A stretch of DNA of 63,290 nucleotides from Chloroflexota bacterium. Its GTDB lineage: Bacteria; Chloroflexota; Dehalococcoidia; Dehalococcoidales; UBA5760. The stretch is from assembly GCA_015222205.1 (NCBI GenBank), contig JADFUW010000027.1:1-63290 (forward strand), written 5' to 3'. Shown piece after piece: positions 24,747 through 29,334 of this stretch; position 1 is the stretch's first letter; every line of letters starts with the position of its first letter. Position numbers and translations under genes: made by a program. The notes below the pieces were generated by a model that was not told the DNA's origin, made no database searches, and saw only the letters and a program-made list of their open reading frames with translations.

Positions 24747-26378
24747 TTATCTTGGATGCTTTTGCCGATAGTACCCATAGTACCAGGTTAGCCAAGCTAA
24801 CAATGTGAGAGCAGCAATGAGCCCTCCAATAAGCCACCAGTTGGTCCATACCAAAGTCTGGAATTCTCCACTCAGGTCACCTATCTGTACTACATAGTGG
24901 CCTGGCTTATTTTCAGTAACAGTGAAGATTACCTCCCGACTTTGTCCGGGACGAAGGGTGATATTCTTGGTGTCTTGTGTTTGCCCATTTATCTTGAGGT
25001 CGGCGACATAGCTGCCTTCCTGCCCACCATCGTTACCTATCTCGGTGCTGATGGTAACACTTTTTGCTGTTCTTACCATAAGGGTAAAGGGTTCCCATAT
25101 CCCTATCTTTTCCTGGCTGGGCGTGATGGTCAAGCCACCGGCCACAAAGTGGGCAGGTGGAGGTGGCGGCGGTGGGGGAGGTGGAGGCGAAGGTTCTGGT
25201 GAAGAAGGTGGGGATGGTGATGGGGGTAACGTCGCCATTACGGCGAGTGAAGAAAAGTGGTTTACCAGTCCAGCTGCCGTACCGACCTCAGCCACTCTAC
25301 CTGGGACACCTTGTGATTTAACCCATTTGCCGAGTTCAGTATCGTAATAGGCGATAAACAACGAGGTAGCATCCTCAGGCAGTTCCTCGGTGGGATAACT
25401 TAATAACACTGTAATTGGTGAGCCGAAGGTAACCATAGGACATTTTGGACAATCTGGGTCTTCCCAATACACTTCCTTATATCCGATAAAGTCATAAACT
25501 TGACCAACTGCTGCCATATCATCCGGTATTGGTGGCGGGTCCTCAGACGGCCTCATTACCACTATTTCTGGGTAGTTCCCACATCCTGGATGCTCACCAC
25601 AAATTACCGGCGTGCCATCGTCAATTACTAAGAAGTGTATATCTTCGGGGTCAGAGGGCTCGTAGTCTTTGAGAACCTTGTTGCCACAGCATCCGACCTT
25701 TATCTTGGTTATTTCACCCAGCATGTCTATCAGGAAATAACACGCCCCTCCACCACCGCCAGTGGGGCCACGGCTACCAGTGGTAGTGGGAGGAGGAGGA
25801 TACTCCTCGAGTGCATAATTTATGTCAAAAGATAGGCAATCTCCTTGAACATCATTACCTGTCGGGCAGGGCAGTTCCCAGTCCCAATCCAGGGTAACGG
25901 TATCACCAGAATTGAGTGGAATTATCTTGACATAATTTGGATCCAAAAAACTCTGCGGAAGGTTAAGGAGCGTCGTTGGAAGGCTTATATTGGTGCTTAA
26001 TCGGCCAGGAGGAATAGAAGAGAGGTCAAACAGTAAGTGGTCAATAAGCTCACCGGGCTCTGAGGTATCGCCCGTCTCAGGTTCCGGGTTTAAGCCTTCA
26101 GTGCTCTCAATATCGCTTATCCAGATGGTAACAAAACCATCTTCGTCACCAGCATTGTGCAGGGTGACCGTCTCAACGCCGCTATCGCAGGGCATAATAT
26201 TCTCTATATTCCAGCTAGTAGCTCCTCCACCCCCCAGCACCAGGTCTACCGGGTCAGCAGCCTGAACTGGGGTTGGTAAAGAGCCAAGCAGAGCCAGCCC
26301 TATTACCGCCGCTAGAAACAATCTGGTGGCGTATCTCGTAGTTCTGCCATTCATAATAGCTTCTTTTAACCTGTTCAT
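24747..26378 (-). CDS. Membrane-anchored TasA/camelysin-like protein with Pro-rich linkers, CARDB-like Ig domain and C-terminal TM; lacks the donor strand
   Basis: Sec signal ending VQA; NIENIMPCDS..VTLHNAG and TGNDVQGDCLSFDI align with the neighbouring TasA-like subunit; C-terminal TM plus basic tail. Confidence 0.75.
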   Translation of the reverse strand: MNRLKEAIMNGRTTRYATRLFLAAVIGLALLGSLPTPVQAADPVDLVLGGGGATSWNIENIMPCDSGVETVTLHNAGDEDGFVTIWISDIESTEGLNPEPETGDTSEPGELIDHLLFDLSSIPPGRLSTNISLPTTLLNLPQSFLDPNYVKIIPLNSGDTVTLDWDWELPCPTGNDVQGDCLSFDINYALEEYPPPPTTTGSRGPTGGGGGACYFLIDMLGEITKIKVGCCGNKVLKDYEPSDPEDIHFLVIDDGTPVICGEHPGCGNYPEIVVMRPSEDPPPIPDDMAAVGQVYDFIGYKEVYWEDPDCPKCPMVTFGSPITVLLSYPTEELPEDATSLFIAYYDTELGKWVKSQGVPGRVAEVGTAAGLVNHFSSLAVMATLPPSPSPPSSPEPSPPPPPPPPPPPAHFVAGGLTITPSQEKIGIWEPFTLMVRTAKSVTISTEIGNDGGQEGSYVADLKINGQTQDTKNITLRPGQSREVIFTVTENKPGHYVVQIGDLSGEFQTLVWTNWWLIGGLIAALTLLAWLTWYYGYYRQKHPR

Positions 26379-26398: not shown

Positions 26399-27268
26399 TT
26401 ATACACCCGTTGCATCAGCGTTATTACCGTCAAGTGCGAACTCAGATGTGGCATTTTCTTCAATGCCGACTCCATCAAATAGGTTGGTTATGTCATACTC
26501 ATACATCTTATCTGTACCATCATCCACCACCCACAGCGATGTACCATCAAGCATAGCCCCGGCTGGACTCTGGAGCTTATTGTTAGTTGTGTACTCTAAT
26601 AGTACCTTTGAGACGGTTACTGGTGTGCCTCCAGGGTGTGGGTACTGATAGAACCTTGTTTCTTTCGGCGTGCTCGTGCTGTAATCCACTACATAGAGGT
26701 AGTTACTGTCGATAGCTAATCCCGCGGCTCCTTTGTTATCAGTATCAAGAGTAATCTTCTGAGCAGCGTTTATGTCACCAGGTCCAGAAAATGCTGTACC
26801 CAGTGGATATCGGTATATATTCTTATCGTTACCCGAAAGCACCCACATTTCAGTACCATAAATAGCTAAACCATCTATGTTCCCAACACTACTCGGCCCA
26901 ACAGCCTTCAAGAGCTTCTTGGAGACATCTTCAAGAGTCCCACAACAGTCGTATTTATAGACCTGCTTCCGAGCATGGTCGATGACATAAACATTCGTTC
27001 CCACCGCAGCCACGCCAGTGGGGAACCCGTTGTCGCCCGAAAGGCCAAAGCTATCTACCGGAGTACCGGAAGCATTGTACTTGTAGATTTTAGCATCAGG
27101 CTTGTCGGAGACATTAAACTTCTCGCAGGTACATACAACCTCCTCTACCCATGCCGTAAACTGATTACCCGTTGAGGTCTCGGTATCACTAAAAAAAGCG
27201 GAGGTGCCACGGCTCGTTATCCCCAGAAGAAGGATAAGAGCTAATGACAGAATTAAGACCTTCTTCAC
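26399..27268 (-). CDS. SipW-cognate signal peptide protein with NHL-like beta-propeller repeats
   Basis: GTSA|FFSDTETSTGNQFTA, then about four GxAxxGxxxYVxD..IYxY repeats. Confidence 0.75.
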   Translation of the reverse strand: MKKVLILSLALILLLGITSRGTSAFFSDTETSTGNQFTAWVEEVVCTCEKFNVSDKPDAKIYKYNASGTPVDSFGLSGDNGFPTGVAAVGTNVYVIDHARKQVYKYDCCGTLEDVSKKLLKAVGPSSVGNIDGLAIYGTEMWVLSGNDKNIYRYPLGTAFSGPGDINAAQKITLDTDNKGAAGLAIDSNYLYVVDYSTSTPKETRFYQYPHPGGTPVTVSKVLLEYTTNNKLQSPAGAMLDGTSLWVVDDGTDKMYEYDITNLFDGVGIEENATSEFALDGNNADATGV

Positions 27269-27370
27269 CTATGGCACCTCCTTTCTTTCAGTAGTCTCTC
27301 TATTCCTAGCGGGCTTCCGCCCGCCATTGCACAAATTCAACCATATGCCGGCTCCGAAGTAAAGGTGAAG

Positions 27371-27433
27371 CCGACCCCACCGCCAACCATGACACTGGGT
27401 TGGTGGTGGAGCGGGACTCCCGCCCCACCACCA
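27371..27433 (-). promoter_or_regulatory. Strong intercistronic hairpin(s) after the TasA-like major subunit gene
   Basis: 27401-27415 pairs with 27419-27433; alternatively 27371-27388 pairs with 27398-27414. Confidence 0.6.
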
Positions 27434-27472
27434 CTTTACTGCCACCTCCATCTAACCAACTAGCCACGGGCA

Positions 27473-28555
27473 TTAAGGTGTGTCAAGGTCGTTGTGCCAG
27501 ATGAGATAGGTCTCAAACAGGTAATCGCCGGAGTTCCAGGCTGTCATCTGACCACTAGCACCAGGGGTAGTGGTGCTATAGTCGCTGGATGGGACGAGCC
27601 ATATCTTGGCGCCGAGTGCCAAGTTGTCATCGGGCGAAGTTGGCAGGTCTATAGCAAGGTCTTGTGAACCCGACGTAGATACGATAGCGCCCGAGCCATC
27701 GGTGGTAAAGGTGGCAATCAGAGCACCAGGATTGTTGCCCGCCCATGGGTCGGCGTAGTAGATGAGGCTGTAATCGGTAGTGTTCTGAAGTCCAATGGCA
27801 CTGAAGGTGTAGTCAAAGGTTGAGCCCACCGTGTTGTAATCCAGGTATCCTGCCGTGCCATCACCGAACAGCACCAACCAGTTCTGGCTTTCATCCTTGT
27901 TCTCCAATACTAGCTGGGTGCCTGGCATCTGCTGGGCAAGGAACTCAACGGTGAAGGTCAGGGTATCGCCCTGATACTCATTGCCGGTAGCAGCATCCAG
28001 GTGATAGCTCTGGATGACATGCATCTTTCCACCCGGCGGAATTGAGCCCAATGGTACAGACACGCTGGCGAGGTCGCTAATGAGCACATTCTCGTTAAAC
28101 AGGGTCTGGTGCCATTGGTCCGTCGTTCCCCCAGTTGTAGGGTCGATAATCTCCGAGGACAGGTCATACAAAATCCAGGCATCGATGTCGTTAATGCTGT
28201 CGTTGGGGTCTACCTGCCACTCAGGCTCAGAAGAACATGTGGCACTCCCTACAGGATACGCTGGAGTACCACCGCCGGTGACGAAATCCGTGAGGTGCTT
28301 CCAGACGACGCAGGGGTTAGTGCCCACGTTGGTGATGTCATACTCTACATACCACGTCTCACACGGCTTGGCATCTTCAATGGTGAACGGCGCTGACCAC
28401 GGGTTATCGCCATCAATGGCGATGTCAATGGTTCCCGCCGAGAAGGTGTTATCCGTGCTGGTCTCAGTATCGGTGAACAAAGCCCAGGTTCCACTAGCCA
28501 CCAGGCTGATTACCACCGCTACCGCAATCGCTAAGCCAAGTATTCTCTTTTTCAT
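27473..28555 (-). CDS. TasA/CalY (camelysin) family fibre subunit with an extra C-terminal domain
   Basis: GTWA|LFTDTETSTDNTFSAGTIDI SipW-type N-terminus; ITNVG and GNEYQGDTLTFTVEFLAQQ motifs. Confidence 0.85.
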   Translation of the reverse strand: MKKRILGLAIAVAVVISLVASGTWALFTDTETSTDNTFSAGTIDIAIDGDNPWSAPFTIEDAKPCETWYVEYDITNVGTNPCVVWKHLTDFVTGGGTPAYPVGSATCSSEPEWQVDPNDSINDIDAWILYDLSSEIIDPTTGGTTDQWHQTLFNENVLISDLASVSVPLGSIPPGGKMHVIQSYHLDAATGNEYQGDTLTFTVEFLAQQMPGTQLVLENKDESQNWLVLFGDGTAGYLDYNTVGSTFDYTFSAIGLQNTTDYSLIYYADPWAGNNPGALIATFTTDGSGAIVSTSGSQDLAIDLPTSPDDNLALGAKIWLVPSSDYSTTTPGASGQMTAWNSGDYLFETYLIWHNDLDTP

Positions 28556-29306: not shown

Positions 29307-29334
29307 AGTATACACCTAAATTACTAAATGTCAA
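29307..29334 (-). promoter_or_regulatory. Sigma70-like promoter of the sipW operon
   Basis: Minus-strand TTGACA-16-TATACT. Confidence 0.55.

Follow-up and report, generated by a model that had tools for sequence, protein, structure and literature searches.

The stretch of DNA analysed here (the window) comprises nucleotides (nt) 1 to 63,290 of contig JADFUW010000027.1 from assembly GCA_015222205.1, an uncultured seabed Chloroflexota bacterium of the class Dehalococcoidia (Dehalococcoidales; UBA5760). Its minus strand carries a four-gene operon that encodes, in order of transcription, a SipW-type signal peptidase, a TasA-like major subunit, a 289-residue protein and a membrane anchor (Table 1). 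The 289-residue protein is the subject of this work: it has a SipW-type signal peptide, a short tag that resembles the donor strand of the co-encoded major subunit, and a body that is predicted to be a five-bladed β-propeller. Among related loci the tag and the anchor gene are kept while the part between them is exchanged.

Results

The 289-residue protein joins a donor-strand-like tag to a predicted five-bladed propeller

The sequence-only reading of this DNA had described a SipW-type signal and strand fused to a propeller. The signal is borne out by TIGR04088, the 34-position NCBIfam model of the SipW-dependent-type signal peptide, which matches residues 9–39 at 29.3 bits against a cut-off of 19 (28.2 bits in a six-frame search of the genome). 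In the whole 0.94-Mb assembly (32 contigs, 89.8% complete) this model matches only two proteins, the major subunit and the 289-residue protein. No twin arginine (RR) occurs in the N-terminus MKKVLILSLALILLLG. Alignment with TasA and with the major subunit places the probable cleavage site after GTSA24 (PMC9674648). The mature N-terminus that such a cut would leave, FFSDTETSTGNQFTA, is identical at 10 of 15 residues to residues 26–40 of the major subunit, LFTDTETSTDNTFSA. The family profile of the major subunit aligns in turn to the TasA chain 8aur from the third residue of 8aur on; the mature TasA chain begins AFNDI. In TasA, residues 28–38 form the donor strand that enters the next subunit, with contacts made by F29, I32 and F39 (Böhning et al., PMC9674648). 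At the level of sequence, the tag appears to be the equivalent of this strand (TasA residues 28–39). In the monomer model, residues 24–42 have a predicted local distance difference test score (pLDDT) below 50, so the segment that follows the signal peptide is probably free in the monomer.

We gathered N-termini by regular expression from all fetched loci and obtained 131 distinct sequences of the major-subunit type and 39 distinct sequences of the cargo type, cargo being the product of the gene upstream of the anchor. The expression fixes positions 2, 4, 6, 13, 15 and 16, at which conservation therefore arises by construction. At unconstrained positions of the tag the two groups are alike, with N35 in 96% of majors and 94% of cargo proteins, S32 in 80% and 94%, T31 in 67% and 79%, and G34 in 57% and 87%. 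The two kinds of N-terminus match up to position 15 and part at position 16, where the majors continue into the start of their jelly-roll (G-T-[LI]-D-[LI]) and the cargo proteins with W-V-E-E.

The AlphaFold2 model of the protein (26 homologues) has a mean pLDDT of 87.8 and a predicted template modelling score of 0.80, and its residues 51–289 form a propeller. DSSP assigns five four-stranded blades, whose mutual alignment has invariant V, Y, Y and L positions. The four repeats on which the earlier reading had based its propeller are all present in the translation (GVAAVGTNVYVID/QVYKY, residues 85–106; GLAIYGTEMWVLS/NIYRY, 133–154; GLAIDSNYLYVVD/RFYQY, 183–209; GAMLDGTSLWVVD/KMYEY, 237–258), but the number of blades is five, since DSSP of the model and the five-blade alignment reveal a further, degenerate blade (KFNVSD/KIYKY) at residues 50–64. 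This first blade has strands at residues 51–55, 60–64 and 70–75 and lacks an inner strand; the C-terminal ATGV (286–288) fills in, giving a closure of the velcro type.

Fold searches with the model point the same way. Foldseek returned NHL propellers (TRIM71, 8j72, E 1e-10, TM-score 0.55), and an exhaustive VIA search placed five-bladed propellers at the top: the Xanthomonas glutaminyl cyclase 3mbr (Z 18.3, root-mean-square deviation 2.5 Å over 190 residues), the C-domain of YjiK (3qqz, Z 18.0), the nucleotidase 2h2n (Z 17.1) and 3nok (Z 16.9), with six-bladed NHL and YWTD domains lower in the ranking at Z of about 15. In a Pfam scan at E ≤ 1, the best match of the 289-residue protein to a propeller family was SGL (PF08450) at 16.6 bits, below the cut-off of 26.3, and neither NHL (PF01436) nor PF12389 gave a match; with five blades by DSSP and alignment, the head departs from the six blades of NHL and SGL. 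Sixty-two proteins (P0002–P0063) match the 289-residue protein at E ≤ 1e-33, with identities of 37–74% where listed, and 13 of them carry a precomputed PF01436 or PF08450 match, which indicates that the blades are of that general type.

The model contains no β-sandwich groove, and its propeller differs from the V-set Ig-like body of TapA. A jelly-roll, the outcome that the earlier reading had named as counting against it, was not what was predicted, and its statement that the NxxQG motif of TasA is absent holds, as there is no QG pair in the 289 residues. In the model, the body is a five-bladed propeller with NHL/YWTD-like blades and not a jelly-roll. Two other Pfam candidates in the protein, Phage_TTP_11 (E 0.006) and Asp5 (E 0.023), were rejected, being below their cut-offs and overlapping a blade or the signal peptide. 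A function as glutaminyl cyclase, lactonase or nucleotidase, which the fold matches had brought up, was not adopted: there is no support from sequence families for any of these, and the same slot otherwise holds binding modules. Identity of the head to 3mbr is 13% and to 3nok 9%, and no Pfam family of glutaminyl cyclases matches at E ≤ 1.

Among the 26 propeller homologues 31 columns are invariant. Most homologues also keep two pairs of cysteines, C46 and C48 (VC.KF, nt about 27125–27133) in the linker and C108 and C109 (Y.C[CS]G, nt about 26942–26947) in the second blade, and a disulfide that pins the linker to the propeller is possible. One metagenomic protein of 420 residues (P0064) belongs to the propeller family (37% identity over 83% of the query) and has an ordinary signal peptide and a fused CAP/YkwD domain (PF00188), an architecture that marks the propeller as an independent module that is also used outside a fibre context.

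The head is an exchangeable cassette

A scan of species-representative genomes with an alignment of the anchor found 51 loci, mostly in Dehalococcoidia and Methanomassiliicoccales. Directly before the anchor there is in most cases a gene that encodes the same kind of signal and tag, then AW or a near variant, then a remainder that differs from lineage to lineage. A common type of cargo, 450–1058 residues long, continues with W.QTT..DF..G. By Pfam, cargo proteins carry DUF2341 with Laminin_G_3 (L014, L021), DUF2341 with a weak 3-keto-disaccharide-hydrolase match (L009), or Kelch repeats (L008, L020, L035 and L047, the last two archaeal). A second scan, of metagenomes with an alignment of the propeller, gave 78 loci, 17 of them with this propeller. 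Of these 17, all 9 with room downstream have the anchor as the next gene (9 of 9), and all 14 with room upstream have a gene for a TasA-like major subunit before the propeller gene (14 of 14); the others are cut by contig ends. A lectin-like domain occupies the same slot in 14 metagenome loci, in 12 of which the anchor is visible, and majors with one domain (about 205–230 residues) and with two (about 340–380 residues) are each found with propeller cargo and with lectin-like cargo. The domain that follows the strand thus varies in homologous loci, as the sequence-only reading had proposed, between the propeller, the lectin-like domain, Kelch repeats and DUF2341 with LamG.

The strand, for its part, behaves as the portable unit that this reading had envisaged: the N-terminal segment is 54–83% identical to that of proteins whose remainder is unrelated (P0065–P0079), and the breakpoints between related loci lie exactly at the end of the tag. 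Comparison by blastn of a propeller locus with a lectin-like one (L062 and L129) showed 93% identity that begins at the end of the major-subunit gene, spans the intergenic region and runs to nt 128 of the cargo gene; there is then no similarity over the cargo, and identity returns at 89.6% from a point less than 25 nt away from the start codon of the anchor gene. In two other pairs (L058/L084 and L079/L070) similarity ends at cargo nt 124 and 125 and returns no more than 50 nt from that start codon, so that the pattern was seen in all three locus pairs tested. The DNA block of the tag is 88.8% identical between L058 (4964–5124) and L084 (6132–6291), where the flanking major-subunit and anchor genes are 73–79% identical; this higher conservation of the tag DNA fits a role as a homology arm in cassette exchange.

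We also inferred a maximum-likelihood tree from the anchor N-domains of 38 loci, a set that left out loci whose upstream gene is a major subunit, unclassified or cut off, as well as seven distant loci in which the tag is joined to another kind of cargo. Cargo types are intermingled on this tree. The propeller label (9 rows) changes six times, with at least four changes forced by starred branches, and the lectin-like label (11 rows) also six times, with at least three forced; L062 and L129 are sisters with support of 100/99. Under an approximately unbiased (AU) test, one common clade for the propeller loci is rejected (delta lnL 146, p 1.5e-59), for a group that was set by cargo label after the tree had been inspected. 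Because of the breakpoints in the locus pairs and the changes of label on the anchor tree, we conclude that the head is exchanged as a cassette whose limits are the tag on one side and the anchor gene on the other. A portable tag with a swappable head is well supported genomically; docking of the strand and a position at the fibre tip are proposed.

Several further architectures were seen among these proteins. The lectin-like family of about 245 residues (P0065–P0067, P0074 and P0077; L005, L070–L086 and L129) has the tag followed by IVSDT..WIWET..DNGYTVWINGxLVG..NPAGLIY and gave no Pfam match above cut-off; two longer forms, P0048 and P0073, have a weak match to the galactose-binding-like Bac_rhamnosid_N (E 4e-4 to 6e-4, below cut-off). 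P0048 combines the tag with a lectin-like domain and a propeller, P0073 has the tag, another domain and a lectin-like domain, and in P0070 the tag precedes a body of 430 residues. On one metagenome contig (L068, 642–1171) the propeller gene lies in two frames, corresponding to positions 1–82 and 89–177 of the propeller alignment, and is either a frameshifted copy or an assembly error.

Among 363 genomes of the order, the window's own included, the full-length propeller family is present in three (G000, G032 and G340) and, cut by a contig end, in a fourth (G345). These four fall in two families, and seven other matching genomes match only the tag or part of the model. The gene order of the operon is kept in G032, G340 and G345. 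In Methanomassiliicoccales, five loci (L033, L035, L038, L041 and L047) have, in this order, a major subunit, sipW, a tag-cargo gene and an anchor, with cargo of the Kelch type where it was scanned (L035, L047). Their anchors cluster on the tree with support of 94/87 on a branch that is not starred. These archaeal loci suggest either an old layout common to both domains of life or transfer between them.

The anchor has a TasA-like domain without a donor strand

The anchor comprises an ordinary signal peptide, a TasA-like N-domain, a middle domain, a Pro-rich linker, a CARDB-like domain and a C-terminal transmembrane helix. In a profile–profile comparison by hhalign, its residues 41–195 align with residues 40–212 of the major subunit (probability 97%, E 1.1e-10). 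The alignment opens at the first mature residues of the anchor (ADPVDLVLGG, after VQA) opposite AGTIDIAIDG of the major subunit, directly past the anchor's signal peptide, which suggests that the anchor has the body of a subunit without a donor strand. Of 35 anchor homologues, 8 have a PF12389 match (best E 7.8e-8) and 33 a CARDB match. The anchor model (pLDDT 80.5) has an N-domain at residues 44–191, a Gly-rich linker, a middle domain at 213–383, the Pro-rich linker, the CARDB-like domain at 411–512 and the transmembrane helix.

The middle domain (residues about 211–387, nt 25215–25745) resembles ZU5 and GAIN domains, which are autoproteolytic modules in eukaryotes; its matches are ZU5A-ZU5B of ankyrin (3ud1, Z 9.8 over 134 residues) and the GAIN domains of CD97 (8ikj, Z 8.7) and BAI3 (4dlo, Z 7.8). 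It contains several conserved cysteines, two of which, C260 and C313, are nearly invariant.

Organisation of the operon

The gene of the 289-residue protein starts with GTG, 7 nt downstream of the Shine-Dalgarno sequence AGGAGGTG, and the anchor gene starts 20 nt past its stop codon. The operon is flanked by housekeeping genes on the other strand or by unrelated genes (for example leuS-like, glnA-like and gatB-like). The signal peptidase scores 60.3 bits against NF046067, the equivalog model of Bacillus SipW, below the cut-off of 190, and is therefore a relative and not an ortholog. The major subunit has a SipW-type signal, a donor strand, a jelly-roll body that extends to about residue 212, and an extra conserved C-terminal domain; positions 27–232 of its family profile match 8aur, the TasA fibre (E 0.0036). 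The sequence GNEYQGD occurs in the major subunit and GNDVQGD in the anchor. The extra domain of the major subunit is about 145 residues long (residues about 215–360, nt 27473–27915), is conserved, and is absent from TasA of B. subtilis.

Table 1. Features of the operon in the window. Coordinates are window positions, and those of the 289-residue protein include its stop codon.
Feature	Position	Strand	Basis
Membrane anchor, 543 residues	24747..26378	-	hhalign, model, Pfam matches of the family
Anchor C-terminal transmembrane helix, residues 514–540 (WWLIGGLIAALTLLAWLTWYY, hydrophobic)	24759..24839	-	helix in the model
Putative TasA-like acceptor domain of the anchor, residues 41–195	25794..26258	-	hhalign to major-subunit residues 40–212
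Tag-plus-propeller protein, whole, 289 residues	26399..27268	-	translation, TIGR04088, homologues, AlphaFold2 model
Predicted five-bladed β-propeller head, residues 51–289, closed by C-terminal strand 286–288	26402..27118	-	DSSP, blade alignment, fold searches
Short acidic, Cys-containing linker VEEVVCTCEK, residues 41–50	27119..27148	-	recombination breakpoint in relatives lies here
Donor-strand-like tag, residues 25–40 (FFSDTETSTGNQFTAW)	27149..27196	-	identity with the major subunit, profile alignment to TasA 28–40, conservation profile
Predicted signal peptide, residues 1–24	27197..27268	-	TIGR04088 at residues 9–39, helix 2–20 in the model
TasA-like major subunit, 360 residues	27473..28555	-	PF12389 56 bits (cut-off 22.5), TIGR04088 37 bits
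SipW/archaeal-type signal peptidase I, 163 residues	28721..29212	-	TIGR02228 68.6 bits (cut-off 51.85)
Candidate promoter-like site (TTGACA, 16-nt spacer, TATACT) upstream of the operon	29307..29334	-	11 of 12 consensus positions

The promoter-like site stays a candidate, as the six such sites in the region are no excess over a mean of 7.7 in shuffled sequence. A weak terminator-like hairpin lies at 27364–27381 on the minus strand, inside the 204-nt gap between the major-subunit and propeller genes, and could lower the expression of the minor genes relative to that of the major subunit; it too is a candidate only, the count of terminator-like hairpins in the region being no higher than in shuffles.

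Near-identical DNA is present in metagenome runs from cold seeps and marine sediment, with shares of 0.21–0.31 in five runs from three studies when the best holder is set aside as the possible source. Contigs from three runs (X2, X3 and X6) are short and patchy, and the little or no cover of the propeller gene in X3 and X6 proves nothing; no contig joined across the cargo so as to show an alternative cassette. An RNA-library run from lake water (X16) has contigs about 91% alike over the major-subunit gene (27338–28175) and over parts of the sipW and anchor genes. The contigs belong to a relative and, given that DNA may be present in the library, do not show expression of this operon.

Discussion

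Taken together, these analyses lead us to favour, at a probability of roughly 0.55, the reading that the 289-residue protein is a donor-strand-only minor subunit of a membrane-anchored fibre of the TasA type, with the propeller as its exchangeable ligand-binding head. The protein would be exported by Sec and cut after residue 24 by the SipW-type peptidase of the operon, and the cut would expose a strand of about 15 residues whose conserved pattern is that of the donor strand of the co-encoded major subunit. This strand would enter the open β-sandwich groove of a major subunit, or of the anchor; by doing so it would set free the strand of that subunit and thus begin or cap a chain, in the way proposed for TapA and TafC. 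The chain would end on the anchor, which, as judged from its sequence and profile alignment, could accept a strand and could not donate one. Since a donor-only and an acceptor-only protein would take opposite ends of a chain, the polarity of a donor-strand fibre would place the propeller at the end far from the cell, distal to the membrane. Relatives retain the 125 nt that code for the tag, together with the anchor gene, and swap everything between them for other binding modules, as the DNA comparison and the anchor tree show. Since Kelch, LamG and galactose-binding-like modules can take the place of the propeller, a head that binds is favoured over one that acts as an enzyme.

Several observations weigh against this reading. 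Enzymes, among them glutaminyl cyclases and a nucleotidase, are found among the best structural matches of the propeller. At E ≤ 0.01, PF12389 does not match the anchor of the window itself, whose likeness to TasA comes from the profile–profile comparison and from its homologues; Foldseek with the whole anchor model gave long, poor alignments to multi-domain β-proteins (TM-score ≤ 0.19), and a VIA-wide search with that model was filled by matches to the CARDB-like and middle domains, which left the N-domain uncovered. Part of the conservation of the tag, at the six positions fixed by the regular expression, was set by the search pattern, conservation past the cleavage site could be due in part to the way SipW recognises its substrate and not to a function after cleavage, and the AU test, with its group defined by cargo label, was run when the tree had already been inspected. 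We also infer, rather than observe, that the strand physically docks, and no fibre has so far been observed in Dehalococcoidia. Complex prediction for residues 25–360 of the major subunit with residues 25–289 of the propeller protein gave 0.59, 0.20 and 0.51 in three runs and 0.43 when an unrelated partner served as control, which argues neither for nor against docking; the first residue used for the major subunit, residue 25, is probably the last of its signal peptide.

Three other accounts start from the same tag. The protein may be a nucleator in the manner of TapA and nothing else, its tag starting the polymerisation of the major subunit and its propeller serving a chaperone-like or structural, non-adhesive part that need not stay on the fibre. 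The tag is indeed the most conserved part among proteins with differing cargo, as this account would have it. An inert body, however, is unlikely to be replaced repeatedly by Kelch, LamG and galactose-binding-like modules, or to keep 31 invariant columns in 26 homologues, and donor-strand complexes are normally so stable that a nucleator would stay at the fibre end anyway; we regard this account as unlikely. We give similarly low odds to the idea that the tag plugs directly into the TasA-like domain of the anchor and displays the propeller on a stalk at the cell surface, while the major subunit forms fibres on other anchors. The 20-nt spacing between the propeller and anchor genes, the constant position of the cargo gene directly before the anchor and the subunit-like anchor domain that has no strand of its own all suit it. 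Against it, nothing in the present data sets the anchor's groove apart from the groove of a major subunit, the major subunit is always there too (14 of 14 loci), and in the published tafi models it is the anchor that takes up the major subunit's strand (PMC11821415).

The protein may, finally, be a secreted or surface protein that is merely processed by SipW, with a motif that serves recognition by the peptidase and a propeller that is released, as an enzyme or a soluble binder, and does not become part of a fibre. In its favour, TIGR04088 is by definition a model of signal peptides, the top folds include enzymes (the glutaminyl cyclases 3mbr and 3nok and the nucleotidase 2h2n), and P0064 pairs the same propeller with an ordinary signal peptide and a CAP domain. 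We know of no type I signal peptidase that requires 15 conserved residues past the cut, however, and the conserved positions coincide with those of majors that polymerise. The strict linkage to a major subunit and an anchor also speaks against this account, as does the lack of any enzyme family among the Pfam matches, SGL being the best and below its cut-off. We consider it slightly more improbable still than the other two, and retain the donor-strand-only minor subunit as the preferred reading.

In B. subtilis, TapA donates a TasA-like N-terminal strand and nucleates fibres (PMC9674648, PMC10151520). The Dehalococcoidia operon resembles tapA-sipW-tasA in its dedicated SipW-type peptidase and its PF12389 major subunit, and its minor protein resembles TapA in that the mature N-terminus copies the donor strand of the major subunit while the body is not a TasA jelly-roll (PMC9674648, PMC10151520). 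It differs in its gene order, in the extra C-terminal domain of its major subunit and in having a membrane-anchored subunit that would act as acceptor only. Where TapA has a V-set Ig-like body, the minor protein here has a predicted five-bladed propeller, and the portions of the two papers available to us describe no swapping of the TapA body as a cassette (PMC9674648, PMC10151520).

The closest published layout is that of the haloarchaeal tafi cluster, with a tip (TafC), an adapter (TafE), a shaft (TafA), a membrane anchor (TafF) and a peptidase (TafD); analogous Sec-dependent clusters have been proposed in other archaea (PMC11821415). There, as here, the proposed tip protein donates the first strand and carries an adhesive domain (PMC11821415), the chain would be ended and anchored by a membrane protein whose N-domain is like a subunit and whose C-terminus has a transmembrane segment, and a peptidase lies in the cluster; the elements of a tafi-type cluster, namely a signal peptidase I, a shaft subunit and a transmembrane anchor with a subunit-like N-domain, are all found in this operon. 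The DUF2341/LamG cargo of sister loci recalls the laminin-G-like domain of TafC. The tafi proteins, however, are substrates of twin-arginine translocation, whereas the signal here is of the Sec/SipW type; the tafi shaft is related to DUF1102 and the shaft here to PF12389; no adapter subunit is present in this operon; and TafC has a pilin-like β-sandwich between strand and head, whereas here the propeller starts at residue 51, about 10 residues past the tag. The architecture proposed for tafi is based, as ours is, mostly on structure prediction.

The AbpX preprint also reports predicted tip proteins, which differ in structure, for loci of the TasA superfamily (bioRxiv 10.64898/2026.01.04.697558). 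Variable tips were thus already noticed in the AbpX/archaeal bundling-pilus loci, there as variation among distant lineages; the sections of the preprint available to us do not report cassette exchange of the kind found here, with defined breakpoints between near-identical loci. The bacterial loci of that work have SLH or LPXTG anchors in place of the transmembrane-anchored, acceptor-only subunit proposed here, and those sections do not mention Dehalococcoidia.

A more distant parallel lies outside the TasA superfamily. Chaperone-usher pili are donor-strand fibres with a specialised tip adhesin (FimH/PapG) and a terminator at the base (PapH), and thus share with the proposed fibre the donor-strand linkage, the specialised tip and the base terminator. 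They have been discussed beside tafi (PMC11821415). Their polarity is the reverse, since FimH only accepts a strand and the 289-residue protein could only donate one, and no usher, periplasmic chaperone or outer membrane is involved here. The likeness to the five-bladed glutaminyl cyclases 3mbr and 3nok and to the C-domain of E. coli YjiK (3qqz) extends to blade number and fold only: identity is 9–15%, no Pfam family of these proteins matches at E ≤ 1, and the blade motifs (LWVVD, IYKY) are YWTD/NHL-like.

Set beside these systems, the operon has a general layout that earlier work put forward for archaeal tafi and AbpX loci, and the idea is less new than first assumed; TapA, TafC and the predicted tip proteins of AbpX loci already embody its principle in print. 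What the sequence-only reading observed is confirmed, with five blades in place of four, and its interpretation is partly supported. What is particular here is a proposed tip in which the strand is joined straight to the head, with no pilin-like domain between them, an unannotated five-bladed family, and breakpoints at the nucleotide level. Literature searches on TasA/SipW donor-strand tips, with most subscription journals and supplements outside their coverage, found no description of this Dehalococcoidia system.

More tentatively, and as a proposal that may well prove wrong, the strand of about 15 residues could be a general, transferable docking tag that would load any folded domain onto the free groove of a TasA-type fibre or its anchor. 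Marine Dehalococcoidia would swap heads by homologous recombination, with the conserved 125 nt that encode the tag as one arm and the anchor gene's 5′ end as the other, and would thereby obtain a pilus that is built tip first without sortase or usher, is terminated by a membrane anchor, and allows a quick change of adhesin.

Dehalococcoidia are abundant, mostly uncultured subsurface bacteria whose surface structures are almost unknown. To our knowledge, cultured Dehalococcoides lack a peptidoglycan wall, and, if that is so, a fibre anchored straight in the membrane would make sense. The locus described here encodes the most stripped-down donor-strand tip protein proposed so far, a strand followed directly by a head, and the nucleotide-level evidence that the head is swapped as a cassette while the strand is kept makes the idea of a portable tag directly testable. 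If this idea is true, it would amount to a simple route for decorating TasA-type fibres and a minimal protein-display system usable in engineering, and it would explain how these bacteria vary what they stick to.

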